DNA from: Bacteroidales bacterium
Lineage (GTDB): Bacteria; Bacteroidota; Bacteroidia; Bacteroidales; Marinifilaceae
Length of the DNA stretch: 64,000 nucleotides
NCBI GenBank assembly: GCA_015061245.1
Contig: SUWY01000010.1
Span: 1,301-65,300 of the forward strand
Direction of reading: 5' to 3'
Part shown: piece by piece, positions 3,342 through 19,803 of the stretch
How the letters are laid out: each line of letters begins with the position of its first letter
Position numbering within the stretch: position 1 is the first letter of the stretch
Position numbers and translations under genes: made by a program
The notes under the pieces: generated by a model
Told to the model about the DNA's origin: nothing
Seen by the model: the letters and a program-made list of their open reading frames with translations, nothing else
Databases searched by the model: none

Positions 3342-3342
3342 T

Positions 3343-3702
3343 ATGGTTAGTAAGATAAAGGAGTGGCTCTCGGCAGAGTCGGTATCTCAAACGTTGAAAG
3401 CGGCCTTCGATGACAAGATTCAGGATATTGATTTGACTGGAAAGGTTGCGAAGAATAGTTTGAATATTATTGTGATTTTTCTGTTGACTATTTTGTATGT
3501 GGCAAATGGTTACTCAATGGAGAAGTTGCAGCGTGAGCATAACAGATTGGAGAGTCAGGTTAACGAGTTGAGATTGCGTGCTGTTGCAACCAATGCAGAG
3601 TTGATGATTTTGCAGAAGGCATCGAATATTTCACAGAGTGTTCAAAATACAGGATTGGAGTTAAAACCGAGCAATGTTGCTCCATATAAATTGAAACGCT
3701 GA
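3343..3702 (+). CDS. ftsL: FtsL-like cell-division protein (bitopic, coiled coil)
   Basis: 119 aa with a single TM segment (LNIIVIFLLTILYVANGY) followed by a leucine-rich coiled coil. Sits in the conserved slot between rsmH and ftsI. Confidence 0.6.
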   Translation: MVSKIKEWLSAESVSQTLKAAFDDKIQDIDLTGKVAKNSLNIIVIFLLTILYVANGYSMEKLQREHNRLESQVNELRLRAVATNAELMILQKASNISQSVQNTGLELKPSNVAPYKLKR

Positions 3703-3703
3703 T

Positions 3704-5842
3704 ATGGCAGGAGAGGGACAAAACGTACAGAGAGGTAAGCGAGGTAGCGCCAGGCAGGAGTTGATTCTAAGAATGGGAATTATTCTTGTCTTGGTTTTGT
3801 GTGCCTTTGTGGCGGTGGCGTTGAGAAGTTTTACCTTGATGACCGTGAAACGAGACTCTCTTATGCAGTATGCCTATAAAGAGACTACAGTTGAGATTCC
3901 TGCGCGCAGAGGTGATATCTTGGCTGCAAATGGGGTGCCTTTGGCAACATCGGTTCCGTTCTATGATATATTTGTAGATATGCGAGAGAATCACATGCAT
4001 GATACAATATTTTATCGCGGAGTTGATAGTTTGGCGCTATGTTTGGCAAATCTGTTCGGGGATAAGGATAAGGCCTCGTACAAGGCATTATTGAACAGAT
4101 CCCGCGATAAGAATAATGGTCATTTATTGATTCATAGAAGAGCAACCTACAATGAGTTGATGGTAATGAAGGGATTCCCTATTTTTAGGCGAGGTCGTCC
4201 GCGTGGAGGTTATATTGTTGAGGAGCGCTCGGAGCGTGTAAGACCTTTGGGTGATATAGGTGCAAGAGTTATAGGTGGCTGTTACCGAAATAATGGAGAG
4301 GGGCACTCCGGATTGGAACTCTATTTTAATGAGCAGTTAAAGGGAGTTCCGGGCGAGGCTTTGGTTCAACGGGCATCGGGTTCTACTATCAAGTCTACAG
4401 TTCTTGAACCTGAAGATGGAGTTACTCTGTTGACAACAATTGATGTTGAGTTGCAAGATGCGCTTAGCTCTTCGTTAATGAAGCATATGATTTATCAGCG
4501 TGCAGATAAGGGGTGTGCCATTTTGATGGAGGTTGAGACCGGAGATATAAAGGCTATCTCCAATTTGTCAAAAGTGGGCGATGGTATTTATGCAGAGAAT
4601 GAGAATATGGCGGTTGAAGGTTTGGGTGAGCCCGGTTCTGTAATGAAAGCTGCAACTTCTATAGCCTTTTTTGAGGATGGATTATTAGCTCCAAATGATA
4701 CTGTGCGCTTAGGAGGTAAGGGGTATTATGTATTTGGCGGAAAGCGTATTACCGATTCTGAGGGGCACGAAGGAATGGATGCTGTGTCGGTGAAGGATAT
4801 GTTTAAATATTCGCTTAACGGAATCTCATTGGTAGCCAATAATTTCTATGGCAAGGAGCCGGCTAAGCTTATCGACCATTGGTACGATATGAAGCTAAAT
4901 GAGAGAACCGGAATTACATTGAAAGGTGAACCTCGTCCGGATATAAAGCATCCAAATGATTCAACATGGGATCGCCATTTTAATAATTTGCCATGGATGT
5001 CTATCGGTTATAGTGTAACCTTGACGCCAATGCAGTTATGTGCCTTTTACAATGCGATAGCAAATGGCGGTCAGCGTATGAAACCAAGGTTGGTAAAGGA
5101 GATTCACCGAGGTGAAGAGGTGTTGGAGTATATCCCGATAGAGGAGGTTGGGTCGAAGATGTATGGAGCTCAGACCAGGGAGTATATGGATACGCTGCTG
5201 TTGGCTGTAGTTGAGGATGAGGGAGGAACGGGACGCAGAATTAAAAGTAAAAATTATAAGATTGCAGGTAAAACGGGAACAGCCCATATCTCTCAAGGTA
5301 GAGCAGGATATGCAAACGGTAAGCGTTGTACTTTTGCCGGATATTTCCCGGCAGATGATCCCAAGTACACCTGTGTAGTTGTAATAGATTTTCCTCGAGT
5401 AAACAGATCCGGAGCTGCGGTATCGGCTCCAGTGTTTAAGGAGATTGCAGACAGAGCGGTTGCAATTATGGCTCGAGAGATTGAGATGGTCAATAACGAT
5501 GATATGGTTATTGCAACTCTTCCTGCAACTAAAAATGGTTATGCTGACGATTTGGAGAAGGTGTGCAACGAGTTTGATATTGAGATAAATCACGTTTCTG
5601 ATGGCGAGTGGGTTAAGGTTGCCGAGAGTAAAGAGGGTAATGCTCTTAATTTTGAGCATTTGACATTGAAGGAGGGGCTTGTCCCGAATGTTGTAGGAAT
5701 GGGAGTTCGTGATGCGGTCTATTTGATAGAGAATGCCGGAATGCGGTGTTCTGTTTCAGGGGTAGGCAGAGTATATTCTCAATCAATACCGTCAGGTTCG
5801 AGAGTTGTAAAAGGTAGAGAGGTTCAGTTGCGATTAAGATAA
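3704..5842 (+). CDS. ftsI: Penicillin-binding protein (class B transpeptidase, FtsI/PBP3-like)
   Basis: 712 aa with an N-terminal TM segment. Transpeptidase motifs SVMK (SxxK), SLN (SxN) and KTGTA are present. Confidence 0.9.
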   Translation: MAGEGQNVQRGKRGSARQELILRMGIILVLVLCAFVAVALRSFTLMTVKRDSLMQYAYKETTVEIPARRGDILAANGVPLATSVPFYDIFVDMRENHMHDTIFYRGVDSLALCLANLFGDKDKASYKALLNRSRDKNNGHLLIHRRATYNELMVMKGFPIFRRGRPRGGYIVEERSERVRPLGDIGARVIGGCYRNNGEGHSGLELYFNEQLKGVPGEALVQRASGSTIKSTVLEPEDGVTLLTTIDVELQDALSSSLMKHMIYQRADKGCAILMEVETGDIKAISNLSKVGDGIYAENENMAVEGLGEPGSVMKAATSIAFFEDGLLAPNDTVRLGGKGYYVFGGKRITDSEGHEGMDAVSVKDMFKYSLNGISLVANNFYGKEPAKLIDHWYDMKLNERTGITLKGEPRPDIKHPNDSTWDRHFNNLPWMSIGYSVTLTPMQLCAFYNAIANGGQRMKPRLVKEIHRGEEVLEYIPIEEVGSKMYGAQTREYMDTLLLAVVEDEGGTGRRIKSKNYKIAGKTGTAHISQGRAGYANGKRCTFAGYFPADDPKYTCVVVIDFPRVNRSGAAVSAPVFKEIADRAVAIMAREIEMVNNDDMVIATLPATKNGYADDLEKVCNEFDIEINHVSDGEWVKVAESKEGNALNFEHLTLKEGLVPNVVGMGVRDAVYLIENAGMRCSVSGVGRVYSQSIPSGSRVVKGREVQLRLR

Positions 5843-5847
5843 CAATT

Positions 5848-7296
5848 ATGAAGATAAGTGCATTGTTGAGTGGAGTTACCACTTTAACTTCGGGTTTTAA
5901 TGGAGATGTTGAGGTTTCCGGAATCCATTTTGATTCCAGAAAGGTTGATAGAGGTTCAATGTTCGTGGCGGTTTGTGGTTACAATGTTGATGGACATAAC
6001 TACATAGCATCGGCAATTGAACGGGGGGCTGTGGCAATTGTTTGTCAAAGAGTGCCAGATGAGCAGACTTTGGGTGTTGAGTATATTGTTGTTGAGGATA
6101 GTTCATTGGCTTTAGGTGTGATTGCATCTAATATGTATGACAACCCATCACGTAAAATGAAACTTGTAGGGGTAACAGGAACGAATGGTAAGACAACAAC
6201 TGCAACCCTAATGTATAAGATGGCTCGTCTTATGGGTTATAAGGCAGGATTGTTATCGACTGTATGTAACTATATTGACGATGAGAAGGTTCCGTCAACA
6301 CATACAACTCCCGATCCAATCGCTATCAATTCATTGATGGCTAAGATGGTTCAAGCAGGGTGTGAGTATTGTTTTATGGAGGTAAGTTCTCATTCTGCAC
6401 ATCAGCATAGAATTGCAGGATTGGATTTTGATGGAGCAATGTTTTCAAATATAACCCATGACCATCTGGATTACCATAAAACATTTAAGAACTATATTGA
6501 GGCCAAGAAGATCTTTTTTGATAATCTTAAGAGCGATGCATTTGCTTTGACCAATCTTGATGATAAGAATGGTATGGTTATGTTGCAAAACACAAAGGCA
6601 AAACGCTATACCTACTCATGTAAGAGAATGGCCGATTTTAATGCCAAAGTGATAGAAAGGCATTTGGATTCAACTCTTTTGGAGTTGGATGGAGAACAGG
6701 TATGGACAAAATTTACAGGCGATTTCAATGCCTATAACCTGTTGGTTGTCTACGCAACCTCAATATTGTTGGGTTTTGCCAAAGATGAGGTTCTTGAAAA
6801 AATCAGTATCTTGGCTCCGGTTGAGGGACGATTTGAGACAATTGTTTCAAAAAGTGGTGTGGTTGCAGTAGTTGATTATGCTCACACTCCCGATGCAGTT
6901 GAGAATGTCTTAAAGACTCTGCAGGCTTTGAAGCGTGATAATAGAATTATTACAGTTGTGGGTGCCGGAGGCGATAGAGATAAAACCAAGCGTCCTGAGA
7001 TGGCGAAGGCTGCATGCGAATTGAGTGATGTGGTAATCCTTACCTCTGATAATCCAAGATCAGAGGAGCCGATGGATATCCTTAACGATATGGTTGCAGG
7101 AGTGCCTGCAGCTAGTACTGAATCCGTTAGGGTTGTTGTCGATAGAGCAGAAGCGATAGGCGAGGCTATTAAGATGGCTGTCAGTGGAGATATTATCCTT
7201 GTTGCCGGTAAGGGACATGAGGATTATCAAGAGATCAAGGGGGTAAAGTATCACTTCTCTGATAAAGAGGTTATTGGTGAAATATTTAATTCATAA
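5848..7296 (+). CDS. murE: UDP-N-acetylmuramoyl-L-alanyl-D-glutamate--2,6-diaminopimelate ligase MurE
   Basis: 482 aa. Contains [11 protein letters not shown] (P-loop), a DNPR motif (TSDNPRSE) and GKGHE. Confidence 0.95.
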
Positions 7297-7301
7297 ACGA
7301 C

Positions 7302-8447
7302 ATGTTATACAGTTTGTTCGAGTTATTGCAGGAGTTGGATGTGCCGGGTGCGGGAGTCTTTAAATATGTGACATTCCGTGCTGCGATGGCGGCTATTTTA
7401 TCGCTCTATTTATCAATTATAGTGGGTAAAAGGGTGATAAAGGTGTTGAAGAGACAGCAGATTGGCGAGGAGATTCGCGATTTGGGACTTGAGGGTCAGA
7501 TGGAGAAGAAGGGAACCCCGACAATGGGAGGAGTTATAATCATCAGCTCAATTTTGATACCGGTTCTTTTGTTGGCCAGATTGTCAAACCCCTACATCAT
7601 AATTATGTTGGTGACAACGATATGGTTGGGAGTTTTAGGTTTTGCTGATGACTATATTAAAGTTTTCCGTAAGGATAAGGAGGGCATGCATGGCCGATTT
7701 AAAATTGTTGGCCAAATAGGGTTAGGAGTTATTGTTGCTGTATCACTTTACTATATCAATAAGGGGGCGGATATAATGACAACAATTCCTTTCTTTAAAA
7801 ATAATGAGTTTAACTATATGTGGCTGACCTCGTGGGCAGGAGATTATAGTAATATTTTGGGTTGGATTGTCTTTGGTCTTTTAGTGATATTTGTTGTAAC
7901 AGCGGTATCGAATGGAGCAAATCTCACAGATGGTTTGGATGGTTTGGCGGCCGGAACCACAGCGCCGGTGGCAGGAACATTGGCAATTTTGGCATACGTA
8001 ACAGGTAGTGTGGTTTGGGCTAACTATTTGGATATCATGTATGTGCCTCGAGTAGAGGAGTTGGCAATATATGGAGCGGCTTTCTTTGGCGCTACAGTGG
8101 GATTCTTGTGGCATAACTCTCATCCTGCTCAGGTCTTTATGGGTGATACCGGAAGTTTGACTATTGGCGGTGTTGTGGCAGTATTTGCAATTATAATTCA
8201 TAAAGAGTTGTTGCTTCCTATTTTGGTAGGAGTATATTTGGTTGAGAATCTGTCGGTTATTATTCAGGTTTCATACTTTAAGTATACAAAGAAAAAGTAT
8301 GGCGAGGGACGTAGAATATTCTTAATGTCTCCTTTGCACCATCACTATCAGAAAAAAGGAATTGCCGAGACTAAGATTGTGGTACGTTTCTGGCTTATTG
8401 CAATTCTATTGGCAGTTGTAACATTGGCAACATTGAAAATCAGATAA
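7302..8447 (+). CDS. mraY: Phospho-N-acetylmuramoyl-pentapeptide transferase MraY
   Basis: 381-aa polytopic membrane protein. Contains [29 protein letters not shown] and PLHHH motifs. Confidence 0.95.
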
Positions 8448-8452
8448 ACGAT

Positions 8453-9790
8453 ATGAGCAGATTGGTTATTTTAGGCGGAGGCGAGAGCGGTGTAGGCGCT
8501 GCTAAGTTGGGTGTAAAACTCGGTTACGATGTCTTCTTGTCCGATAAAGGTAAATTGGCAGAGAAGTATGCAAATCAGCTCAATGAAATGGGAGTTGAGT
8601 ATGAGAGTGGAGTTCATACTGAGGAGAAGATTCTTAATGCCGATTTGGTTATTAAGAGTCCCGGTATCCCTGAAACTGCACCTATGATAGTAGCTCTTCG
8701 TAGTGCAGGTGTAGAAATAATTTCGGAGATTGAGTTTGCAGGAAGAAACAGCAATGCTCGTATGATATGTATCACAGGAAGTAATGGAAAAACTACTACC
8801 ACTCTCTTGACTCACCATCTGTTGACCAGTTCAGGAGTTGATGCCGGTTTGGCTGGAAATGTTGGACATAGTTTGGCCGCTCAGGTTGCTGATAATGCTC
8901 ATGAGTTGTATGTTGTTGAGTTGTCAAGTTTCCAACTTGATGGAATGTATCAATTTAAGGCAGATATTGCCATCTTGACAAACATCACTCCGGACCATTT
9001 GGACAGATATGAGTATAAGTTTGAGAACTATGTAGATTCTAAATTCAGAATTTTACAGAATATGGGCGAGGGCGACCTTTTTATATATGGTCAGGATAGC
9101 CCTGCAGTAAGCGAGAAACTTGCCTCTTTTGCGTCAATAGCTCCTCAGAGTATAGGATTTACATATTGCGAGGAGTCATGTTGTGGAGCGAAAGTTGTTG
9201 GTGATTCTGTTCAGGTTGAGCTGGATGGACGTAAGTTTGCTGTAGATAAGAGTGGAATCAGTATTAAGGGAAGACACAATCTTTATAATGCAATGGCAGC
9301 TATCTGTGCCGTAATGAGAGTAGGTTTGACAGACGAGCAGATTGTAAATGGATTGCAGAGTTTTCCGCAAGTGGAGCATCGCTTGGAGACCGTTTGTGTT
9401 CGTGATGGTGTTACATTTATCAATGATTCTAAGGCAACAAATGTTGACTCTTCGTGGTATGCCCTTGATAGCATGACACAGCCTGTAATTTGGATTGCAG
9501 GTGGAACAGATAAGGGTAATGACTACTCGGTGCTTGATGATTTGGTAAAGGCAAAGGTAAAACGATTGGTGTGTATGGGCTTGGATAATAAAAAACTTAT
9601 AGACCATTTTGGCGGAATGATACCTCTATCTGATACCAATTCGTTGGAGGAGTGTTATGCAGAGTGTGTGAAATATGCCGAGAGTGGCGATGTGGTTCTG
9701 TTGTCGCCATGTTGCGCAAGTTTCGACCTGTTTAAGAATTATGAGAATAGAGGAGAGTTATTTAAAGAGATAGTAAAAAATCATGGGTAG
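8453..9790 (+). CDS. murD: UDP-N-acetylmuramoylalanine--D-glutamate ligase MurD
   Basis: 445 aa. Contains ILGGGESGVGAA (Rossmann fold), ITGSNGKTTT and DSKATN. Confidence 0.95.
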   Translation: MSRLVILGGGESGVGAAKLGVKLGYDVFLSDKGKLAEKYANQLNEMGVEYESGVHTEEKILNADLVIKSPGIPETAPMIVALRSAGVEIISEIEFAGRNSNARMICITGSNGKTTTTLLTHHLLTSSGVDAGLAGNVGHSLAAQVADNAHELYVVELSSFQLDGMYQFKADIAILTNITPDHLDRYEYKFENYVDSKFRILQNMGEGDLFIYGQDSPAVSEKLASFASIAPQSIGFTYCEESCCGAKVVGDSVQVELDGRKFAVDKSGISIKGRHNLYNAMAAICAVMRVGLTDEQIVNGLQSFPQVEHRLETVCVRDGVTFINDSKATNVDSSWYALDSMTQPVIWIAGGTDKGNDYSVLDDLVKAKVKRLVCMGLDNKKLIDHFGGMIPLSDTNSLEECYAECVKYAESGDVVLLSPCCASFDLFKNYENRGELFKEIVKNHG

Positions 9791-11042
9791 TGCATTAGAG
9801 TGGATATGGAGAGAGATTCGTGATATGTTCACGCTCGACTATTGGATTCCAAAGGGAGATAAACTTTTGTGGATTCCTATAATCATATTGGCTTTATCAT
9901 CGCTGTTGTTTATCTATTCATCGACAGGTTATTTGGCCAGTCGTTTGAATGGGGGTGCAATGGCTTACTATTTGTGGAAACAGATTATCTTTCTTATTGC
10001 AGGATATGTAGTTATTATGGTGGTACAAAGACGCTCCTTTAAGGCTGTAATTGACTATGTGCCATGGTTCTTGCTATTTGGAATAGGTTTGATGATTCTG
10101 GCATGGATATTGGGCGATGCCAAAAATAGTGCAGGTAGATGGATTGTGTTGGGACCTATAAGTTTTCAACCGTCAGAGGTGGTTAAGTTGGCAACTATAA
10201 TGTTTATAGCAAGGGATATATCATATAACCAAACAGCAGAGGGCTATAATTTTAGCTGGAAGAGAATGATATTGCCGCTTTTTGCGATACTCTTGATTTT
10301 CAAAGATAATATCTCTACTGCTATTTTATTGTCAGGAACCTGTTTTATGATGATATGTATTGGTAGATTACCATGGAGACAGATTGCAAAGGTGGTAGCG
10401 ATTGCCATAGGTGGTATTGCAATTCTGGTAGGTTCGTTGCTGGCTATCCCAGATTCAACTATTAATGCCTTGAAAGATAACGAGGTACTAAAGCGTATCC
10501 CGACAGCACAGTCGCGAATAAAGACATTCTTCGATCCTGTACCACTCGAAGAGATGGAGTTGCAGGAGATTCGAGATTCCCAATCTATTCAGGCTCAGAT
10601 AACCGTAGCATCGGGAGGAGTTTTGGGAAAAGGACCGGGAAACAGTATTCAGGGAATAAAGTTGCCCGAGGTCTATTCCGATTTTATCTTTGCTATAATT
10701 CTTGAGGAGACCGGCTTGTGGGGTATGGCATTGATAATGATAATGTACTCGATAATGTTGATATCGGCATTTAGGGTGCTGTTTAAGTGCAAGTCGCTGT
10801 TTTTAGGACTTTTAGTTGTTGGAATTGTAATGTGTTTGCTTTTCCAGACAATAATTCATATGTTTGTATGCGTGGGATTATTCCCAGTGACAGGTCAAAC
10901 ATTACCCCTGTTAAGTAAAGGTGGAACATCGACTCTTATAGTGTGTTTGGAGTTGGGAATTTTGCTTGGGGTTAGTAATATGATTCAACAAGAGGAGCAA
11001 CAACAGTTGGCAATGAATCAGAGTGCCAATAATAATGAGTAG
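9783..11042 (+). CDS. ftsW: SEDS-family peptidoglycan glycosyltransferase FtsW
   Basis: 419-aa polytopic membrane protein. SEDS-type motifs are present (QPSEVVKL, PEVYSDFIFA, PLLSKGGTS). Overlaps murD by 8 nt (ATGGGTAG). Confidence 0.9.
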   Translation: MGSALEWIWREIRDMFTLDYWIPKGDKLLWIPIIILALSSLLFIYSSTGYLASRLNGGAMAYYLWKQIIFLIAGYVVIMVVQRRSFKAVIDYVPWFLLFGIGLMILAWILGDAKNSAGRWIVLGPISFQPSEVVKLATIMFIARDISYNQTAEGYNFSWKRMILPLFAILLIFKDNISTAILLSGTCFMMICIGRLPWRQIAKVVAIAIGGIAILVGSLLAIPDSTINALKDNEVLKRIPTAQSRIKTFFDPVPLEEMELQEIRDSQSIQAQITVASGGVLGKGPGNSIQGIKLPEVYSDFIFAIILEETGLWGMALIMIMYSIMLISAFRVLFKCKSLFLGLLVVGIVMCLLFQTIIHMFVCVGLFPVTGQTLPLLSKGGTSTLIVCLELGILLGVSNMIQQEEQQQLAMNQSANNNE

Positions 11043-12147
11043 AGTTATGGGTAAAAGAGTAATTGTTTGTGGAGGTGGTACCGGAGGCCATATCTTTCCG
11101 GCATTGAGTATTGCGAATGCATTGAAAAGATTGGAGCCGGGTATAGAGATATTGTATGTGGGAGCTTTGGGCAGAATGGAGATGGAGAAGGTGCCTGAAG
11201 CAGGATACAAAATTATAGGATTACCTGTAATGGGGTTGAAACGTAAGTTGACACTTCAAAATATTAAGGTCCTTATCAATCTGTTCAAGAGCCTTAGAAT
11301 GGCTAAGAGAATATTGAATGAGTTTAAGCCCGATGTGGTTGTGGGTGTTGGAGGATATGCCAGTGGACCTATGGGTAAAGTTGCTGCTAAAGGCGGAGTG
11401 CCTTTGTTGTTACAGGAGCAGAATTCGTATGCAGGTGTGACTAATAAATTGTTGGGAAAACGTGCATCGAAGATATGTGTTGCTTATGATGGAATGGAGC
11501 GTTTCTTCCCTGCCGATAAGATTGTAAAGACCGGAAATCCTGTCCGCAAAGATCTTTTGGAGGCATTGGAACATAAGAGCGAGGCTATTGAATATTATGG
11601 TTTGGACCCCCAAAAGAAGACTCTGTTGATTACTGGTGGTAGTTTGGGTGCCGGAACAATAAATAGTGCTATTGAGCACTCATTGTCTAAGATTGCTGAG
11701 TGGAGTGATGTTCAGGTGTTGTGGCAGTGTGGTGGTTATTACTACGAGGAATTGAAGGAGCGGGTGGCTGATAAGTTGCCTGGTAATGTTAAGTTGATGC
11801 CATTCTTGAAGAGAATGGATTATGCCTATGCCGTGGCGGATTTGGTTGTTGCTCGTGCGGGTGCAAGTACAATCTCGGAGTTATGTCTTTTAGGTAAGGC
11901 TGCAATTCTTGTGCCCTCGCCCAATGTTGCAGAAGATCATCAAACAAAAAATGCAATGGCTCTTGTTAATAAGGGGGCTGCAGTTATGGTTAAGGATTCT
12001 GATGCCGATAAAATGTTGTGCAGTAGAGTAGAAGAGATTATAGATAATGACAAAATGTTACTATCTTTACGAAGTGAAATTAAGAAACTGGCCTTTATGG
12101 ACTCGGATGAGGTTATTGCTAAAGAGGTATTGGCTTTGATTAAGTAA
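11035..12147 (+). CDS. murG: UDP-N-acetylglucosamine--N-acetylmuramyl-(pentapeptide) pyrophosphoryl-undecaprenol GlcNAc transferase MurG
   Basis: Contains GGGTGGHIFPAL. The ORF track starts at a GTG at 11023. I prefer the ATG at 11035 (MSRVMGKRVIV...) because it gives the same 8-nt ATGRGTAG stop/start overlap seen at murD/ftsW. The ATG at 11047 is also possible. Confidence 0.9.
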   Translation: MSRVMGKRVIVCGGGTGGHIFPALSIANALKRLEPGIEILYVGALGRMEMEKVPEAGYKIIGLPVMGLKRKLTLQNIKVLINLFKSLRMAKRILNEFKPDVVVGVGGYASGPMGKVAAKGGVPLLLQEQNSYAGVTNKLLGKRASKICVAYDGMERFFPADKIVKTGNPVRKDLLEALEHKSEAIEYYGLDPQKKTLLITGGSLGAGTINSAIEHSLSKIAEWSDVQVLWQCGGYYYEELKERVADKLPGNVKLMPFLKRMDYAYAVADLVVARAGASTISELCLLGKAAILVPSPNVAEDHQTKNAMALVNKGAAVMVKDSDADKMLCSRVEEIIDNDKMLLSLRSEIKKLAFMDSDEVIAKEVLALIK

Positions 12148-12150
12148 TTT

Positions 12151-13551
12151 ATGGAAAAGGTTGATTTAAAAGATATTCAGTTTGTCTATTTCTTGGGAAT
12201 TGGAGGAATAGGTATGAGTGCTTTGGCCAGATATTTTAAGGCTAAAGGGTTTGAGGTTGCCGGTTATGATAGAACAAGAACTCCATTGACCCAAAAATTG
12301 GAACAGGAGGGTATTATGGTAAACTATACTGATCAGGTTGCCGAGATTCCATTCAAGTATCGCGATAATAAAACAACTTTGTTGGTGTATACTCCGGCAA
12401 TTCCTAAGGATAATTTGCAATTGCAGTGGTTTTTGAATCATGGATTTGAACCTCACAAGCGTGCAGAGGTGCTTGGGATGTTGTCAAAGATGGGTAAGGC
12501 ATTGTGTATTGCCGGTACACATGGAAAGACAACCACAACAACTATGTTGACCTATTTGTTACAAAGTTCTCATGTAGGTTGTAGTGCCTTTCTTGGTGGA
12601 ATTTCCAAGAATTACAATACAAATTTGATTCTGAATCCGAAGTCAGATTACATTGTGGTTGAGGCAGATGAGTATGATCGCTCATTTTTGCATTTAGAGC
12701 CTGAGATGGCTGCTATAACCGCGATGGACAATGATCACATGGATATATATGGCACTCGTGAGTCTATGCTCGATGCTTTTGCTCAATTTGCATCGCAGGT
12801 TCGTTCAGGAGGAGCCCTTTTCCTAAAGCATGGATTGGAGTTGCAAGGTCAATTTGCTTCGCAGACAAAGGTTACAGGTAGTTATGGTGTTGAGTGTGGT
12901 GCCGATTATGAGGCTCAAAATTTGAGATTGGTAGATTCAAAGTTTGAGTTTGATTTCCACTCTCCGGAGTGTGATATTAAGGGATTGCGATTGGGAGTTC
13001 CGGGAAGAATGAATGTTGAGAATGTCACTATTGCAATTGCTATAGCATTACGATGTGGAGTTACCCCCGATGAGATTCGTGAAGCCCTTCCGAACTTTGA
13101 GGGAGTTGTTCGTCGATTTAATCTGCATTCAGAGAGTGCAGTTGGTAAGTATGTAGATGATTATGCACACCATCCTGAAGAGATTCGTGCTACTTTGAAC
13201 GTAGCTCGTGAGATATGGCCAAATGAGAAGTTGACAGTTATATTCCAGCCTCACCTATATACCAGAACTCGCGATTTGTATGTTGAGTTTGCAGAGACAC
13301 TTTCAATTGCCGATAAGGTAATTTTGACTGAAATATATCCAGCACGAGAGGAGCCTATACCTGGAATAACCAGTGAGATTATTTTGGAACGTTTGGCTGC
13401 AGATACAGAGAAAGTGTTGGTTCCTAAGGCTGAGTTGATGGAGTATTTGAATAAAAAATTTGATGGAGGTGTATTGTTGACTTTGGGCGCTGGTAATATT
13501 GATCAACTAATACCCGAAATTAAGGAGTGGATGAAGTGGCGTAAACCATAA
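12151..13551 (+). CDS. murC: UDP-N-acetylmuramate--L-alanine ligase MurC
   Basis: 466 aa. Contains FLGIGGIGMSALA, AGTHGKTTTT and DDYAHHP. Confidence 0.95.
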   Translation: MEKVDLKDIQFVYFLGIGGIGMSALARYFKAKGFEVAGYDRTRTPLTQKLEQEGIMVNYTDQVAEIPFKYRDNKTTLLVYTPAIPKDNLQLQWFLNHGFEPHKRAEVLGMLSKMGKALCIAGTHGKTTTTTMLTYLLQSSHVGCSAFLGGISKNYNTNLILNPKSDYIVVEADEYDRSFLHLEPEMAAITAMDNDHMDIYGTRESMLDAFAQFASQVRSGGALFLKHGLELQGQFASQTKVTGSYGVECGADYEAQNLRLVDSKFEFDFHSPECDIKGLRLGVPGRMNVENVTIAIAIALRCGVTPDEIREALPNFEGVVRRFNLHSESAVGKYVDDYAHHPEEIRATLNVAREIWPNEKLTVIFQPHLYTRTRDLYVEFAETLSIADKVILTEIYPAREEPIPGITSEIILERLAADTEKVLVPKAELMEYLNKKFDGGVLLTLGAGNIDQLIPEIKEWMKWRKP

Positions 13552-13556
13552 GTATC

Positions 13557-14288
13557 ATGAAAAGAATATTTGCATTGATTGTCATATTGCTGTTGATGGC
13601 CTATATGGGAGTGGCCCTCTTCTATGCTTCCAACAAGCATAAGGAGGTGCTGTATAGTGGTATGAGTATCAGTGTGAATCAAGTTGAGATGAATTCATTG
13701 ATAGATACCCTGACTATCTCAAGATTGATTGAGTCTCGTTTTGGCTCTTTTGAGGGACAATTGATATGTGCTATTAATACTGATACAATCGTTAACTATC
13801 TAAAGGGATTGGAGCAGGTAAAAGATGCCGGAGTCTATTTTTCCCAACAGGGTAGGATGTATATTACAATAGAGCAACATGAACCTCTCTTCAGAGTCTA
13901 TCCTAACGGAGGAGCTCCCTATGCAATTGATGAAAAGGGCGAGGTTATGCCAATTCGTGGTTCTGCAGCATTTCGCTCAATTGTAGTAACGGGAGCTGTT
14001 ACAAAGGAGATGGTCAAGAGCCAGGTTGTTGATTTGGTTGAATATATCAATGCCGACAGAGTGTGGAGGGCAATGTTTGAGCAGATTCATGTTGAGGAGT
14101 CGGGAGATTACATTTTGGTTCCCAATATTGCCAATATAAAGATAAGATTGGGAAGTTTGGATGAGATGGATTTAAAGTTTGAAAATTTACGTCTCTATTT
14201 GGAGCAAGGTGTGGATAAGAGAGGTTGGAGTGCATACAAAGAGATTAATTTGAAATTTACAAACCAGGTAGTAGGGGTTAAGCGATAG
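13557..14288 (+). CDS. ftsQ: Cell-division protein FtsQ (POTRA-containing)
   Basis: 243 aa with an N-terminal TM segment (IFALIVILLLMAYMGVALFY). Sits in the conserved slot between murC and ftsA. Confidence 0.75.
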   Translation: MKRIFALIVILLLMAYMGVALFYASNKHKEVLYSGMSISVNQVEMNSLIDTLTISRLIESRFGSFEGQLICAINTDTIVNYLKGLEQVKDAGVYFSQQGRMYITIEQHEPLFRVYPNGGAPYAIDEKGEVMPIRGSAAFRSIVVTGAVTKEMVKSQVVDLVEYINADRVWRAMFEQIHVEESGDYILVPNIANIKIRLGSLDEMDLKFENLRLYLEQGVDKRGWSAYKEINLKFTNQVVGVKR

Positions 14289-14290
14289 AT

Positions 14291-15424
14291 ATGGAGACAA
14301 GAGTTTCAATAGAGATAGGAAATCAGACCATTGTTGCGGCATTTGGTTATGTGTCGGATTCGGCAACTGTAAAGTTGAATGAGGTTGCTATGGCCCCTAC
14401 CGAAGGGTATGAGAATGGCAAGATTATTGATAAGCCGGCTTTGATGCAGGTCTTATATGATCTGGTCAATAGAGTTACAAAACAGACCTCGCTCAGAAGT
14501 GCAGCAATTCAGTTCGTAATGCCGGCTGAAGTTGTACAGAGAGTAGAACATACAGTTAATTTGAAGAGTGTAAAGCTTTTAGATAAGAAAAGCCTTCGTG
14601 AGGCTGCAGCTCAATGTAAGAAGGAGATAACTTTGCAAGAGGGATATGATATTATTGATATGATTCCAAGCAAAGTAGTGGTGAATGGAGAGGAACGTTC
14701 AACCGTAAATATAGAGTCGGCAGCCAATGTGGAGCTAACATGGAGCGTTTTTGTTGTTCCCGAGAGTGTTATGACGGAGTGGATGGAGCTTTTCGATATA
14801 TTTAAGGCTGATTCGATAAATTTCATTCCATACGAAAGAGCGTGTGGCGAGGCTTTTGCAGTGTTTGGAGGCTCAAAGGAGTTGTCGATAGTGGATTTGG
14901 GAGCTGAGAGTGAGCGTGTATTGAATTTTACAGGAGGTTTGTTAAAGGTTTCTGAGCGATTGAGGCTTGGCGCTGATACCATTGATCAGGATATTACATG
15001 GGCATATAAATTACCATTAGAAGATGCCCGAGAACTGAAACTATCACATGGAGAGGCTCTGTTGTATACATGTAAAATGGATTATGTTCCCCTTCCTGAT
15101 GGCTTGAACGAGTGTAAAACAAAAGAGTTAATGGTGGTGATTCAGAGCCGTTTAGAGGAACTTTATGAGGGAGTGATTTACATTCTACAACAAAATGGTT
15201 GTCGAGGTGGCAATGTTGTTTTAATAGGTGGTGGTAATAATCTTAAGAATAGCGATCTTCTTTTTAAGATGTTGTCCGGGATGACTGTAATTCCTACTAA
15301 GTATATGGCACAGGCAAAATCAGAGAGTGATTTGATGGTTAAGGAGTTTGCAGTAGCAGTTGGAGCCTTGGGTAGTGAGACTCAAGAAGATGAGCCGGTT
15401 AAGAGTAAATGGTTCCCATGGTAA
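14291..15424 (+). CDS. ftsA: Cell-division protein FtsA (actin-like), divergent
   Basis: 377 aa. Aligns by eye to the FtsA blocks: phosphate-1 SIEIGNQTI, phosphate-2 region IVDLGAESERV, LGADTIDQDI, adenosine motif VVLIGGGNNL, and an amphipathic C-terminus KSKWFPW. Confidence 0.8.
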   Translation: METRVSIEIGNQTIVAAFGYVSDSATVKLNEVAMAPTEGYENGKIIDKPALMQVLYDLVNRVTKQTSLRSAAIQFVMPAEVVQRVEHTVNLKSVKLLDKKSLREAAAQCKKEITLQEGYDIIDMIPSKVVVNGEERSTVNIESAANVELTWSVFVVPESVMTEWMELFDIFKADSINFIPYERACGEAFAVFGGSKELSIVDLGAESERVLNFTGGLLKVSERLRLGADTIDQDITWAYKLPLEDARELKLSHGEALLYTCKMDYVPLPDGLNECKTKELMVVIQSRLEELYEGVIYILQQNGCRGGNVVLIGGGNNLKNSDLLFKMLSGMTVIPTKYMAQAKSESDLMVKEFAVAVGALGSETQEDEPVKSKWFPW

Positions 15425-15442: not shown

Positions 15443-16855
15443 ATGAGTTCATATATCGATATAGAGGATTTAAGTGGCCGAGTTAATGAAGAGGAGGCCC
15501 CTATAATTAAAGTTATGGGTGTTGGAGGTGGAGGTTCCAATGCTGTAAACCACATGGCCAGAGTCGGAATTAAGAACGTAGAGTTTATTATATGTAATAC
15601 CGATATTCAAGCTCTGCGTGAAAGCCCCATAAAGAATAGAATTCAGATTGGTAAGGATTTGACCGAGGGACTTGGTGCAGGATGTTTGCCAGAGAAGGGT
15701 AAGAATGCAATAATTGAGAGTGCCGATGATATTCGTGCTCTTCTTGAGAAGAATACAAAAGTCTTGTTCATTACAGCCGGTATGGGTGGTGGAACAGGAA
15801 CAGGTGCTGCACCTCAGATTGCTAAGATAGCTCATGAGATGGGAATCTTAACCATAGGTATTGTTTCAGTGCCATTTGAGTTTGAGGGAGAGAAGAAGTT
15901 GAAACAAGCGATGGAGGGGATTGACGAGTTGGAGAGTTATGTCGATACTATTTCAATAATTGTCAATGATCGTCTGCTTGATGAGAATTACTCGGTTCCA
16001 TTGTCAACTGCCTTTGCCATGGCTGATGATGTCTTGGCTATGGCGGCTAAAAGTATTGCCGATGTCATAATGATGCCGGGTTACATTAATGTTGATCTTC
16101 GTGATGTATGTACTGTAATGCGTGACAAGGGTGTAGCATTGATTGGAAATGGAGTTGGTGAGGGTGAAAATCGTGCAATAGATGCGGTAAAAGCTGCGCT
16201 ATACTCGCCTCTATTGAAGGATCAGGATATCAAAGGGGCTGCCTATGTTTTGATACATATTCAATATGGTCCAAACGAGGTTACCATTCAGGAGCATGAT
16301 GATATAACCGATTACGTATTGAGTAAGGTTGGTCAATTGACAAATGTTATTTGGGGAACAGCCTATGATGAAGAGCTTGGAGATAAGTTGAGAGTATCTG
16401 TTGTAGCTACCGGTTTTAATAGAAGTTCAATTAATGAGGTGCGTCAGCTTTCGGGTAGCACTAAGCAACCACGAGTAATGAGGGTAGAGAAAAAGCATAC
16501 GCAGAGCGTTGAGACTGAGTTTAATGTAGTTCCAAAGCAGAGCGATTTGACAATGAAGATCGAGGACTCGGCAGCAATTGAGGCAAAGGCTCGAGAGCAG
16601 CGTGAACGTAAGGAGCGTGAACAGGCAGAGCGTGAGAGAAGGGAACAGGAGTTGCGTAAGAGGATAGAGCATGAGCAACAACAAAATAAGATTCAGAACC
16701 AGACTCAGGATAGAGATTTTCAACTTGATGATGACGATTTTGAAGCACCTCAAAAAGAGCAGAGTTCTAAGAGTATAACGAGTGCAGAAGCCGTTGATAA
16801 ATGGTTTAAGAATAAGTTAGGCGGAGGCGAAGGAGTTGATTTTGAGTTAGATTAA
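15443..16855 (+). CDS. ftsZ: Cell-division GTPase FtsZ, copy 1 (long charged linker)
   Basis: 470 aa. Contains IIKVMGVGGGGSNAV, GMGGGTGTGAAP, GYINVDLRDV (T7 loop), VVATGF, then an E/R/K/Q-rich linker, ending DKWFKNKLGGGEGVDFELD. Confidence 0.9.
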   Translation: MSSYIDIEDLSGRVNEEEAPIIKVMGVGGGGSNAVNHMARVGIKNVEFIICNTDIQALRESPIKNRIQIGKDLTEGLGAGCLPEKGKNAIIESADDIRALLEKNTKVLFITAGMGGGTGTGAAPQIAKIAHEMGILTIGIVSVPFEFEGEKKLKQAMEGIDELESYVDTISIIVNDRLLDENYSVPLSTAFAMADDVLAMAAKSIADVIMMPGYINVDLRDVCTVMRDKGVALIGNGVGEGENRAIDAVKAALYSPLLKDQDIKGAAYVLIHIQYGPNEVTIQEHDDITDYVLSKVGQLTNVIWGTAYDEELGDKLRVSVVATGFNRSSINEVRQLSGSTKQPRVMRVEKKHTQSVETEFNVVPKQSDLTMKIEDSAAIEAKAREQRERKEREQAERERREQELRKRIEHEQQQNKIQNQTQDRDFQLDDDDFEAPQKEQSSKSITSAEAVDKWFKNKLGGGEGVDFELD

Positions 16856-16866
16856 AATGTAACGAT

Positions 16867-18003
16867 ATGGCAGAAGGAATGATTAATTTCGATTTAAGTG
16901 AGGATCGTCCCAATATCATCAAGGTTATTGGCGTTGGTGGCGGTGGCGGTAATGCTGTTCGTTACATGGCCCAAAAGGGAATTGTCGACGTTGATTTCGT
17001 TATATGTAACACAGATAAGCAGGTAACCCAAAAGGATGATTTGAATATCGAGTATATTCAGATTGGAGAGGAGTGTACCAATGGTTATGGAGCTGGTAAT
17101 GATCCCAATATAGGTAAAGAGGCGGCTGAAGAGAGCATAGAACAGATAAAGAGCGTGTTGAGCGGTGATACTAAAATGGTATTTATAACTGCTGCTATGG
17201 GAGGAGGTACAGGAACAGGAGCTGCTCCGATTATAGCTAAAACAGCTAAAGATATGGGTCGTTTGGTGGTAGGTGTTGTTACAGTGCCTGCCCGTTTTGA
17301 GGGACCTATTCGTGTCAATAATGCCAAGGCCGGTGTTGAGGCTATGGAGAGTGTTGTGGATTGTTTGATTGTTATTGAGAATGACAGAATTAAGCGTATT
17401 CATAAAAACTCAACACTGTCGCACGCCTTCTCGCAGGCTAATGAGGTGCTATTAACTGCAGCCAAAGGAATTGCCGAGATTATTACATTGTCGGGATATA
17501 TAAATGTAGACTTTGCCGATGTTAAGACCGTTATGGAGAATAGCGGAGTTGCTATTATGGGAGCAGCTAAGGCAGAGGGTGAAGATAGAGCTATCACGGC
17601 AATTAAAGATGCCCTTGAGAGTCCGCTTTTGAGCAATGATATTTTGGGCGCAAAAAATATTCTCTTCAATATTACCTCGGGCGAGGATGAGGTTCGTACC
17701 GATGAGTTGTTGAAGATTACCCGTTATATAATTCAAAAAGTAGGCGATAAGGCTTCTGTTATATGGGGAGTTGGTCGTGATATGAGTTTGGGGAAGGCTC
17801 TTTCGATAACAGTTATTGCAACAGGTTATCCTAAAGGATTGTTTAATATTGCAAATAACGGAAATGAGCGTAAGCCAATTACCGTAGAGCTGAATTATGT
17901 GACACTAACCCCTAATCTGTCCGAGACTGAGCGTTTAAGTTTGATAAATGAGCCGGCTTATAAGCGTCGCGGACAGATATTGAGAGTAACACATGGAGAT
18001 TAA
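16867..18003 (+). CDS. FtsZ paralog, copy 2 (short tail)
   Basis: 378 aa. Contains IIKVIGVGGGGGNAV, AMGGGTGTGAAP, GYINVDFADVKTVM, GEDRA and VIATGY. The tail contains NEPAYKRRGQ. Confidence 0.85.
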   Translation: MAEGMINFDLSEDRPNIIKVIGVGGGGGNAVRYMAQKGIVDVDFVICNTDKQVTQKDDLNIEYIQIGEECTNGYGAGNDPNIGKEAAEESIEQIKSVLSGDTKMVFITAAMGGGTGTGAAPIIAKTAKDMGRLVVGVVTVPARFEGPIRVNNAKAGVEAMESVVDCLIVIENDRIKRIHKNSTLSHAFSQANEVLLTAAKGIAEIITLSGYINVDFADVKTVMENSGVAIMGAAKAEGEDRAITAIKDALESPLLSNDILGAKNILFNITSGEDEVRTDELLKITRYIIQKVGDKASVIWGVGRDMSLGKALSITVIATGYPKGLFNIANNGNERKPITVELNYVTLTPNLSETERLSLINEPAYKRRGQILRVTHGD

Positions 18004-18015
18004 AGAGTATATAGA

Positions 18016-19803
18016 ATGGAGAAATTTAGAGCGTTAGGATTATCTGAGGATATTTTAAAGGGAATAGAGGAGTTGGGATTTGAGACTCCAACACCAATAC
18101 AGGAGAGAGTTATTCCGGTTGTTTTGTCGGGTTGCGAAGATTTGGTTGCACTTGCACAGACAGGAACAGGAAAGACAGCTGCATTTGGATTACCCTTATT
18201 ACAATCTTTAGATCTTGATAGTAAATCGATACAAGCTTTGATTTTGAGCCCTACTCGGGAGCTGTGTGTTCAGATATGTAACGATTTGATTAAATATTCG
18301 AAGTATCTGCCTCAAGTTAAGTGCACTGCAGTTTATGGAGGTACAGATATTCGTAAACAGATAAATACCATAGAGAAGGGGGTACATATTCTTGTGGCAA
18401 CTCCCGGACGTTTGTGCGATTTGATTCGTCGCGAGGCTGTAAATATAAATCAGGTACGTTGGGTAGTTCTTGATGAGGCTGATGAGATGTTGAATATGGG
18501 TTTCCAGGAGGATCTGAATTTTATTCTCGAGGAGACACCCAAGGAGAGAAATACCTTCCTTTTCTCTGCAACTATGCCTGTTGAGGTTGAGAGAATTGCT
18601 AAAAACTATTTGAAAAATCCACAGGAGATTACTACCGGAAAGAGAAATCAGGGCGCCGATACTGTCAGCCATATTTACTATCAGGTTATGGCAAAGGATT
18701 GCTATGAAACATTACGTAGAGTGATTGACTGTGAGCCGGATATGTATGCAATTATCTTTACTCGCACTAAGAATGATGCACGCGATATAGTTAAGAAATT
18801 GCAGAAGGATGGTGTTGATTGCGATGCTCTTCATGGAGATCTGAGTCAAGCTCAGCGTGATGATGTTATGTCACGTTTCAGAGCAAAACTGCTAAAGGTG
18901 CTTGTAGCTACCGATGTGGCGGCACGAGGTTTGGATGTTGATAATTTGACCCATGTAATCAATTATAATCTGCCCGAGGATATTGAGAGTTATACCCATA
19001 GAAGTGGTAGAACAGGACGTGCAGGTAAGGAGGGAATATCGGTATCTATTATCAATGCTCGTGAGAGTGGCAAGATTCGCAGATTGGAGAAGATGTTGCG
19101 TCGTCCGTTTACCTTCTGCAAGGTACCTAGTGGTGAAGATGTTGGTCGTGCTCAGTTACACTATTATGCAGATAAGGTGGTAACCGTTGAGCCTAAGGAG
19201 GATGTAGATAAGTATGTAGGCGAACTGTTTGCCAAGTTCCAGGAGATGGATAAAGAGATGCTTATTCGTAAGGTCTTTGCATATGAGTTTGGAAAGTTGC
19301 TGAAGAAATACAGAAATGCTAAAGATTTGAATATCATGGATGCTCCTAAGCCTAAGGGAGAGCAGAATGATCGTTCTACATATAAGGTGTTCTCGATTAA
19401 TGTTGGTAGAAATGATGGTTTCTCTCCACGTAGCTTGATGGAGATTATCAACTATTGTGCTCCACGCAGAGGTATGGATATAGGAGGTATCAGAGTGGGT
19501 AATGATGAGACCAAGTTCGAGATTGATGTGGATGGAGTTAAGAACTTTCCAAGGTTCTTTAACGGTATTCAGTTCGAGGATACTCTAATTAAGGTAAAGG
19601 AGCTTGATGAGGAGCCGGTATCAACACCTAAGGTAAAGAAGGAGCGATGGAGCAAAGAGCGTCGTGATAGAGGCGAGGGTAAGTCTGAGCGTAAGCGTGG
19701 AGATAAGCGTTCGAAACGTAATAACACTGCTCAGAATAAATACAGACGAGCTAATGCTGAAGGAGCAAAGAGAAATAGTAAGGGTGGTAAACGAGGTAAA
19801 TAG
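18016..19803 (+). CDS. DEAD-box ATP-dependent RNA helicase with DbpA-type RNA-binding domain and basic tail
   Basis: 595 aa. Q-motif region, AQTGTGKT, DEAD, SAT, HRSGRTGRAG; C-terminal VFSINVGRNDGF...IRVGNDETKFEI; K/R-rich end. Confidence 0.9.
   Translation: MEKFRALGLSEDILKGIEELGFETPTPIQERVIPVVLSGCEDLVALAQTGTGKTAAFGLPLLQSLDLDSKSIQALILSPTRELCVQICNDLIKYSKYLPQVKCTAVYGGTDIRKQINTIEKGVHILVATPGRLCDLIRREAVNINQVRWVVLDEADEMLNMGFQEDLNFILEETPKERNTFLFSATMPVEVERIAKNYLKNPQEITTGKRNQGADTVSHIYYQVMAKDCYETLRRVIDCEPDMYAIIFTRTKNDARDIVKKLQKDGVDCDALHGDLSQAQRDDVMSRFRAKLLKVLVATDVAARGLDVDNLTHVINYNLPEDIESYTHRSGRTGRAGKEGISVSIINARESGKIRRLEKMLRRPFTFCKVPSGEDVGRAQLHYYADKVVTVEPKEDVDKYVGELFAKFQEMDKEMLIRKVFAYEFGKLLKKYRNAKDLNIMDAPKPKGEQNDRSTYKVFSINVGRNDGFSPRSLMEIINYCAPRRGMDIGGIRVGNDETKFEIDVDGVKNFPRFFNGIQFEDTLIKVKELDEEPVSTPKVKKERWSKERRDRGEGKSERKRGDKRSKRNNTAQNKYRRANAEGAKRNSKGGKRGK

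Follow-up and report, generated by a model that had tools for sequence, protein, structure and literature searches.

FtsZ is almost always a single-copy protein in bacteria, and the tethering of its filaments to the membrane is central to the models of the division ring. Here, we describe a pair of adjacent ftsZ genes from the genome of a gut Odoribacter (Bacteroidota; Bacteroidales; Marinifilaceae), found in a window of 64,000 nucleotides (positions 1,301 to 65,300 of the forward strand of contig SUWY01000010.1, assembly GCA_015061245.1), to which all the coordinates given below refer unless another locus is named. The two open reading frames (ORFs) are located on the + strand, directly after ftsA in the division and cell wall (dcw) cluster, and will be called Z1 (15443-16855) and Z2 (16867-18003). 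Both encode complete FtsZ cores, and the most informative difference between them is in their C-terminal tails: Z2 keeps a peptide of the FtsA-binding type, while Z1 has lost it and carries instead a tail that may attach the protein directly to the membrane.

Several described systems resemble this pair to some extent. In plastids, the pairs are formed by FtsZ2 or FtsZA, which have a conserved C-terminal peptide, and FtsZ1 or FtsZB, which do not. As in such pairs, two full-length paralogs have been retained in the window, only one of them keeps the peptide that would link it to a membrane tether, and both are expected to be part of one ring. Unlike the plastid pairs, the peptide-less Z1 appears to have gained a conserved amphipathic tail, both genes are in tandem in a bacterial dcw operon, and the duplication is an independent one, as both copies fall among the FtsZs of Bacteroidota. 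There is also an artificial parallel: Osawa, Anderson and Erickson are said to have engineered, in 2008, an FtsZ-mts whose C-terminal peptide was replaced by a membrane-targeting helix, and this protein was reportedly used in liposome reconstitution. Z1 has a similar design, with an FtsZ core, a linker and a predicted terminal amphipathic helix in the place of the FtsA-binding peptide, but it is natural and its helix resembles the tails of FtsA, not that of MinD.

In Odinarchaeota, FtsZ1 anchors directly by its own N-terminal amphipathic helix, while FtsZ2 does so via its tail and SepF (PMC12583498). Judging from their sequences, Z1 and Z2 would likewise be dual FtsZs, one with its own helix and the other depending on a C-terminal tail and an adaptor. 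However, the helix of Z1 is C-terminal, the adaptor would be FtsA, and the archaeal paralogs are far older and not orthologous. The group 1E FtsZs of Mycoplasma also lack the FtsA-binding peptide and have a terminal amphipathic helix, and membrane binding has been demonstrated for that of M. genitalium (10.1101/2023.08.29.555414). Z1 is similar to them in having a predicted terminal amphipathic helix and no canonical peptide, although Mycoplasma cells are wall-less and have not been described as carrying a tandem pair, whereas Z1 coexists with a canonical-tail Z2 in a walled Gram-negative organism. Finally, the Hyphomicrobiales have extra paralogs (FtsZ1 and FtsZ3 in Agrobacterium tumefaciens, and others in Bradyrhizobium) that are mostly truncated after the GTPase domain or a short linker, the duplicates being defined as copies outside the dcw cluster (10.1101/2025.09.29.679267). 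These are also lineage-specific bacterial ftsZ duplications retained over families but, unlike them, Z1 and Z2 are full length, tailed and adjacent within the dcw cluster.

The first-pass annotation of the window, which was made from its sequence, knew of no described dual-FtsZ divisome in Bacteroidales, and full-text literature searches agree with it, as they returned no paper on two ftsZ genes in Odoribacter, Butyricimonas, Prolixibacter or any other member of Bacteroidota. Furthermore, the Bacteroidota pair is not mentioned in a broad phylogeny of the FtsZ family or in a recent survey of bacterial ftsZ duplications. It had also been considered that the novelty would disappear if such pairs were already routinely annotated across the family. 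They are in the public annotation, but not in the literature: the pair is visible family-wide, yet its biology appears to be undescribed. Consequently, its novelty as a feature of this particular window is low, and the interest comes instead from the differentiation of the tails, an intermediate state in Prolixibacteraceae, the possible capture of an FtsA tail and the decay of FtsA. The pair gives bacteria an equivalent of the two-FtsZ systems of plastids and archaea, and does so in a cultivable lineage, to which belong both the free-living Prolixibacter and frequent commensals of the human gut that grow in culture (Odoribacter splanchnicus, Butyricimonas and Culturomica). Their two full FtsZs have long remained together in a single operon, and the anchoring of the filaments seems to have been shared out between them.

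Two Complete FtsZ Proteins Encoded in Tandem

Z1 (470 residues) and Z2 (378 residues) are separated by a spacer of 11 nucleotides (AATGTAACGAT, 16856..16866, + strand), exactly at the coordinates given by the first-pass annotation. In Z1, the full GTPase and C-terminal-domain core spans residues 1-326, and no canonical C-terminal peptide follows; in Z2, the full core (residues 1-321) is followed by a short C-terminal region of 56 residues. All the motifs originally quoted are present, namely GVGGGGSNAV, GLGAGCLPEKG, GGGTGTGAAP, NVDLRDV and VVATGF in Z1, and GVGGGGGNAV, GYGAGNDPNIG, GGGTGTGAAP, NVDFADV and VIATGY in Z2. The G-box (GGGTGTG) and the catalytic T7 loop (N-x-D-x-x-D) are intact in both proteins and across both of their clades. 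Profile searches also confirmed that both are complete FtsZs, as they match the Pfam domains Tubulin (PF00091) and FtsZ_C (PF12327) and score above the curated cut-off (295.2 bits) of the ftsZ equivalog model TIGR00065, with 362 bits for Z1 and 328.6 for Z2. Additionally, both align with all the solved FtsZ structures with E values of approximately 1e-78 to 1e-84, and an AlphaFold2 model gives the core of Z1 a confident FtsZ fold, with a predicted local distance difference test score (pLDDT) of ~90.

It had been estimated by eye that about half of the core positions are identical, and BLASTP agrees, with 47% identity over 312 residues (E 2e-76). In a codon alignment of the cores, 54% of all nucleotides and 34% of those at third positions are identical, and no exact match is longer than 11 nucleotides; hence, the pair is neither a recent nor an assembly-derived duplicate. 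The first-pass annotation was right in this regard, but its other suggestion, that one copy might have been acquired, finds no positive support, as the composition of both genes is native and both nest within Bacteroidota. In fact, the GC content is 0.424 for Z1 and 0.423 for Z2, with third-position values of 0.365 and 0.361, all of them equal to those of the neighboring genes, and neither copy looks degenerate or foreign. Similarly, Z2 had been regarded as the copy closer to textbook motifs, which holds for the T3 and T7 loops but not for the whole model, where Z1 has the higher score and fewer substitutions. Among the columns with a clear consensus in Z1, Z2 and the single-copy FtsZs of Bacteroidota, 120/131 are identical in the three groups, and the clade-specific substitutions at otherwise conserved positions are 4 in Z1 and 6 in Z2. 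The changes fixed at otherwise invariant sites are in TAAMGGG, PARFEGP and ANDVL for Z2 and in AAKSIAE for Z1. Both longitudinal interfaces look intact in the two sequences, which would allow, although it does not prove, their co-assembly in one ring. That Z1 and Z2 are functional, conserved paralogs is, in our view, practically certain.

Conservation of the Pair

Z1 and Z2 are identical or nearly so to proteins of an Odoribacter sp. metagenome-assembled genome (MAG; proteins P0121 and P0010). Beyond it, two series of homologues were found: Z2-type proteins of ~377-395 residues in Culturomica, O. splanchnicus and their relatives, and Z1-type proteins of ~430-470 residues in Odoribacter, Butyricimonas and Marinifilaceae. 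In public annotation, the members of both series are labelled just “cell division protein FtsZ”, and we suggest that Z1 and Z2 should not both be named plain “ftsZ”. A survey of synteny, which had been recommended in the first-pass annotation, demonstrated that the arrangement is not specific to this window. The order ftsW-murG-murC-ftsQ-ftsA-Z1-Z2-helicase is present in O. splanchnicus, in Culturomica, in a 2.4-Mb Butyricimonas contig and in Marinifilaceae MAGs, and the ftsA-Z1-Z2 order is kept in, among others, two Marinifilaceae MAGs, an Odoribacter MAG and cultured strains. A tandem pair is also found in Prolixibacter bellariivorans (in a 5.2-Mb contig) and in Prolixibacteraceae metagenome contigs, with the order ftsA-copy a-copy b-yqeY. 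In every pair-bearing genome examined, the pair stays in the dcw operon right after ftsA, while there is a single ftsZ beside ftsA in other Bacteroidota loci (L008-L017) and in L098, a locus whose flanking genes match those of Prolixibacter. These loci were partly gathered by a contig scan with very specific Z2 peptide patterns, which retrieved mostly distant FtsZs of Firmicutes and of the candidate phyla radiation (CPR), missed O. splanchnicus and others, and was useful only for L006-L017 and L056.

Purifying selection acts strongly on both genes, and their divergence from genus to genus has run in parallel. In the closest comparison, that of the window with L006, the ratio of nonsynonymous to synonymous substitutions (dN/dS) is 0.050 for Z1 and 0.026 for Z2, with a high dS of 1.4-1.8. 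The distances between genomes are nearly equal for the two genes (e.g., 0.244/0.237, 0.525/0.521 and 0.359/0.359 for Z1/Z2), and the branching order within the Z1 clade mirrors that of the Z2 clade. It might be argued that the pair is an artefact, produced by a chimeric assembly or composed of one gene and a decaying pseudogene, and the first-pass annotation had warned that its finding would fail if one copy proved degenerate. Nevertheless, the same junction has been independently assembled in at least nine genomes or contigs, which excludes a chimera, and both frames are open, with dN/dS values of 0.03-0.05 and equal divergence rates. The artefact explanation is, therefore, effectively refuted.

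Another tandem ftsZ pair located after ftsA and followed by yqeY was observed in L086 (3684-6134, GCA_002754915.1). Its copies are 0.77 apart and neither of them clusters clearly with Z1 or Z2; the first one ends in a lysine-rich linker and ...RTLFSE.

Differentiation of the C-Terminal Tails

The first-pass comparison was confined to the cores and, consequently, missed the tails. In the single-copy FtsZs of Bacteroidota, the core is followed by a long linker, a ...E-x-x-PAY-x-RR... peptide and ~35 further residues with the conserved end NNSFLHDNVD. In its form, PAYxRR matches the C-terminal peptide by which the model FtsZs bind FtsA or ZipA. Z2 has its counterpart, EPAYKRR, at residues 362-368 (17950..17970, + strand), and the Z2-type proteins have a short linker and end soon after (E/I/V)PA(Y/F)(K/E)RR, without the NNSFLHDNVD extension. 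This terminal sequence was seen in L008-L017, L098 and P0243-P0263; it is missing from Z1 and Z2, and copy b of Prolixibacteraceae keeps it.

Of the tails inspected, neither that of the window Z1 nor those of the Z1-type proteins and of copy a of Prolixibacteraceae contain a PAYxRR-like peptide. While disorder is the usual description of FtsZ linkers, the one of Z1 includes an ER/K-rich stretch (residues 376-426, 16568..16720, + strand, AKAREQRERKEREQAERERREQELRKR...) that is predicted to be a single long α-helix: AlphaFold2 models one helix of 51 residues in 376-426, with mean pLDDT values of 88-97 for the blocks of 10 residues over 381-420. Similar charged linkers are carried by other Z1-type proteins. 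The terminal tail of Z1 (16781..16852, + strand) is predicted to include a helix in residues 447-458 (S-AEAVDKWFKNK), followed by GGGEGVDFELD, an acidic end. The helix is short and only moderately amphipathic, with a pLDDT of ~60. Among 36 Z1-type and Prolixibacteraceae copy-a proteins, the consensus of this tail is WFxxKxGxLFSxD, with an invariant W454.

Prolixibacteraceae have what looks like an intermediate state. Copy b has the complete ancestral tail (PAYxRR...NNSFLHDKAD), while copy a has a W-F tail of the Z1 type. On this evidence, the downstream gene, Z2, descends from the canonical ftsZ, and the upstream one, Z1, is the modified copy. As read from these alignments, it is highly probable that the tails have been partitioned between the two proteins in the way described here.

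Likeness of the Z1 Tail to FtsA and Divergence of FtsA

In all the loci examined, FtsA ends in an amphipathic peptide of the kind that forms the FtsA membrane-targeting helix. The tail of Z1 has a hydrophobic moment of 0.57 in the window and, when O. splanchnicus and Butyricimonas are included, of 0.57-0.61. These values exceed the 95th percentile (0.54) of all the sequence segments of Z1 and are comparable to those of the FtsA tails examined (0.34-0.78, except for 0.18 in the very short FtsA tail of the window). There is also a resemblance in sequence. A terminal [LIFMV][LIFMV][SA]D.DME[LIMV] is common to FtsA and copy a of the same Prolixibacteraceae genome, and it has no other occurrence in the 639,000 residues of the six-frame ORFs of all the loci fetched. 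In shuffling controls, the FtsA tails of Prolixibacteraceae resemble the copy-a tails and the Z1 tail of L094 (p 0.001-0.009), and the FtsA tail of the single-ftsZ locus L098 (...DLFGNIKRGIAGIFEEKDSEM) resembles the Z1 tails of O. splanchnicus, Culturomica, Butyricimonas and L094 and those of copy a (p 0.001-0.01) but not the Z2 tails or the canonical FtsZ tail (p > 0.6). These p-values are per comparison, and the tail sequences are related to one another.

The FtsA encoded in the window is strongly divergent. Its gene (14291..15424, + strand) codes for 377 residues and ends in a short W-F peptide (...EPVKSKWFPW). The protein obtains 33.5 bits with the Pfam FtsA model and 68.7 bits with TIGR01174, whose cut-off is 175.85. 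With this last model, the FtsAs of single-ftsZ Bacteroidota score 377-397 bits, that of the Prolixibacteraceae-type locus L095 scores 316, that of Butyricimonas 171 and that of O. splanchnicus 163. The gene is, in any case, still under purifying selection (dN/dS 0.083 against L006), and the terminal hydrophobic peptide is retained. We infer that this gradient fits a constraint on FtsA that was relaxed or shifted after one of the FtsZs gained its own anchor.

Proposed Attachment to the Membrane and Possible Roles of the Two Proteins

Although other explanations must be considered, we lean, with modest confidence, towards an old tandem duplication of ftsZ in the dcw operon that was followed by a division of labor in the attachment to the membrane and the divisome. 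The duplication would have occurred in a lineage of Bacteroidia that includes at least Odoribacteraceae/Marinifilaceae and Prolixibacteraceae. According to this proposal, both Z1 and Z2 would be working FtsZs that hydrolyze GTP, polymerize, are transcribed with ftsA and act in division, and what was divided between them would be the C-terminal tail, that is, the ties of the filament to the membrane and the divisome. Z2 would come from the canonical copy and, as it keeps the PAYKRR peptide, it is probably recruited through FtsA. Z1 would have lost the PAYKRR-type peptide and acquired a rigid ER/K helix and a W-F amphipathic helix of the FtsA type, by which it would most likely attach directly to the membrane. 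The outcome would be mixed or neighboring filaments of Z1 and Z2 with two independent anchors. That both genes are intact, conserved, under purifying selection and co-divergent, with the tail architectures described, is observed; that Z2 binds FtsA, that Z1 attaches itself to the membrane and that the two co-assemble is inferred. A direct binding of Z1 to the membrane is plausible, though somewhat short of probable.

The tail of Z1 may also be read as a short linear motif for a protein partner, also used by FtsA, in which case Z1 and Z2 would recruit different divisome partners instead of attaching to the membrane in different ways. It is true that the most specific sharing between FtsA and copy a in Prolixibacteraceae is in the acidic end, L(I/F)(S/A)D.DME(M/L/I), and not in the hydrophobic face, that the Z1-type tails of Odoribacter, Butyricimonas and Culturomica and the FtsA tail of L098 end in D(S/P/T)EM, and that the hydrophobic moments are just moderate. 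However, the most conserved part of the tail is W454 with the hydrophobic and basic WFxxKxGxLF, FtsA tails of a like shape are membrane-targeting helices in model bacteria, and no candidate partner was identified. Although it deserves consideration, we regard a partner motif as unlikely.

It has also been considered that one copy could mainly regulate the other, tuning or inhibiting the assembly of the Z ring as has been proposed for the extra paralogs of Agrobacterium and other Hyphomicrobiales, without being a structural subunit. FtsZ1 of A. tumefaciens is dispensable for division and blocks it when overexpressed, which fits a role in regulation (10.1101/2025.09.29.679267), and in each of the two clades described here a few positions that are otherwise invariant carry a different, fixed residue. 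Nevertheless, Hyphomicrobiales paralogs are mostly truncated and their duplicates are defined as being outside the dcw cluster, while both Z1 and Z2 have a full core, a linker and a conserved tail, are located in the cluster and evolve at the same slow rate, all of which makes a regulatory role improbable. A copy that had left division altogether for a role in membrane remodeling or cell shape, like the archaeal CetZ or the magnetotactic FtsZm, is more difficult still to accept. The unusual rigid ER/K linker and new tail of Z1 could be understood in this way, as could the degeneration of FtsA, but both genes are in the dcw cluster right after ftsA in every genome examined and both score as FtsZ equivalogs; such a change of function is, thus, very improbable.

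Origin of the Pair

Neighbor-joining (NJ) trees, built with two distance corrections and 100 bootstraps, strongly support each of the groups: 98% for the Z1 clade, 97% for the Z2 clade and 100% for both copy a (allowing up to five extra leaves) and copy b. Z1 and Z2 nest among the FtsZs of Bacteroidota and are nearer to these than to the sampled sequences from Firmicutes, CPR and archaea, and all four groups have their closest neighbors among the same slowly changing single-copy FtsZs of Bacteroidota, as would be expected for long branches arising from nearby nodes. The first-pass annotation had hoped that a phylogeny would tell which copy is the ortholog of the single-copy genes. The monophyly of each clade is clear in this regard, but the deeper nodes are not, and it is the tails that point to Z2 as the canonical descendant. 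Only one column, and an uninformative one, came out of a search for derived residues that unite Z1 and Z2 against the other FtsZs of Bacteroidota. The core phylogeny is neutral as to whether the pairs of Odoribacteraceae and Prolixibacteraceae share one origin.

A single event could account for the gene order, the identity of the tails and the Prolixibacteraceae intermediate together. A tandem duplication broken on its left side within the ftsA linker and on its right side within that of ftsZ would leave ftsA intact and place after it a gene in which the FtsZ core continues in frame into the FtsA tail (Z1), then the original intergenic region and, lastly, the canonical ftsZ, also intact (Z2). 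The chimera of FtsZ and a membrane-targeting sequence (MTS) would have made the Z ring partly self-anchoring, FtsA would then have lost constraint, and the lineage would be in transition to an FtsA-independent tethering. Were the tail really captured in this way, Z1 would be a natural FtsZ-mts, and an essential adaptor, FtsA, would be decaying after its client gained the adaptor's function. The whole scenario is speculative and, on the present evidence, rather unlikely. Its first part, the derivation of the Z1 tail from ftsA, can be put forward tentatively from the pairwise alignments with shuffling controls and the rare shared terminal motif, which are what links both tails.

There are several observations that weigh against the reading presented here, both in its general form and in its more specific version. 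First, FtsA keeps its own terminal amphipathic peptide in all the pair-bearing genomes, and it is not evident why Z1 should need another anchor. Additionally, the binding of PAYKRR to the very divergent FtsA of the window is assumed by analogy with model organisms, and the tail helix of the window Z1 combines an AlphaFold2 confidence of only ~60 with a moderate hydrophobic moment. With respect to the tails, profile hidden Markov models (HMMs) of FtsA tails retrieve no Z1 tails and the reverse search also fails, and the tail of the window Z1 (VDKWFKNKLGGGEGVDFELD) has diverged to the point that its likeness to FtsA tails is not significant (p 0.08-0.9). Considering this drift and the HMM failure, as well as the per-comparison p-values obtained from related sequences, the homology of the tails must be taken as a supported hypothesis and not as a result. 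As for the phylogeny, the deep NJ nodes joining Z1, Z2, copy a and copy b have 0-3% support, and a four-point test favors the grouping of Z1 with copy a and of Z2 with copy b by only 119 vs. 77 of 200.

The trees have a bearing on another explanation, in which one copy was horizontally acquired from a different Bacteroidota lineage and inserted beside the resident ftsZ. Z1 and Z2 are not sisters in the NJ trees, and their mean distance (0.70) is greater than the mean among the other FtsZs of Bacteroidota (0.57), which would speak for an acquisition. However, the deep nodes have hardly any support, and the nearness of both copies to the same slow FtsZs fits two long branches from one node. Moreover, the head-to-tail placement in one operon is what a tandem duplication yields, GC content is identical to that of the neighboring genes at all and at third positions, and a single duplication, broken within the ftsA and ftsZ linkers, is enough to account for both the order of the genes and the FtsA-like tail. 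Consequently, we consider an acquisition to be quite improbable.

Gene Neighborhood and Other Loci with Several FtsZ Units

As proposed in the first-pass annotation, the pair is part of a tightly packed operon. The upstream dcw cluster (2433..14288) is complete, and its gene order is the same in relatives. All its genes are on the + strand and most were assigned with Pfam: rsmH (2433-3341), a gene for an ftsI-type penicillin-binding protein (3704-5842), murE (5848-7296), mraY (7302-8447), murD (8453-9790), ftsW (9783-11042), murG (11023-12147) and murC (12151-13551). They are followed by an ftsQ-sized ORF (13557-14288, 243 residues) that was named by its position in the cluster; neither this ORF nor its counterparts of 241 residues in relatives have any Pfam or NCBIfam match. 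A scan for sigma-70 promoters and intrinsic terminators around the pair, which does not cover Bacteroidota promoters, gave nothing above the shuffled expectation and no terminator-like site at or near the 16856-16866 spacer. Downstream of Z2 there is a gene for a DEAD-box/DbpA-type RNA helicase (18016..19803, + strand, Pfam), which is the conserved downstream neighbor in Odoribacteraceae and Marinifilaceae, this position being occupied by yqeY in Prolixibacteraceae.

Proteins in which FtsZ units are fused were considered as evidence for a heterodimer fusion and rejected, as those concerned (P0241 and P0251) are irrelevant to Z1 and Z2. P0241 (L088, 2367-10503, GCA_949281275.1) is a eukaryote-style gene model of 840 residues, in which two FtsZ units are joined across 8 kb of a contig of 317 kb. 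Among the representatives, it gave the highest score with Z2, and it may be a modelling artefact or derive from organelle-type FtsZ genes. P0251 comes from a locus that is unrelated, lies outside the dcw cluster and contains three FtsZ units. Finally, in L089 (4001-7670, GCA_009995055.1) and L090 (JGI 3300025786), two complete FtsZ units are fused within the frame of one ORF of 826 residues, after which lies the gene for a third FtsZ, of 350 residues, in a context that is not that of the dcw cluster.

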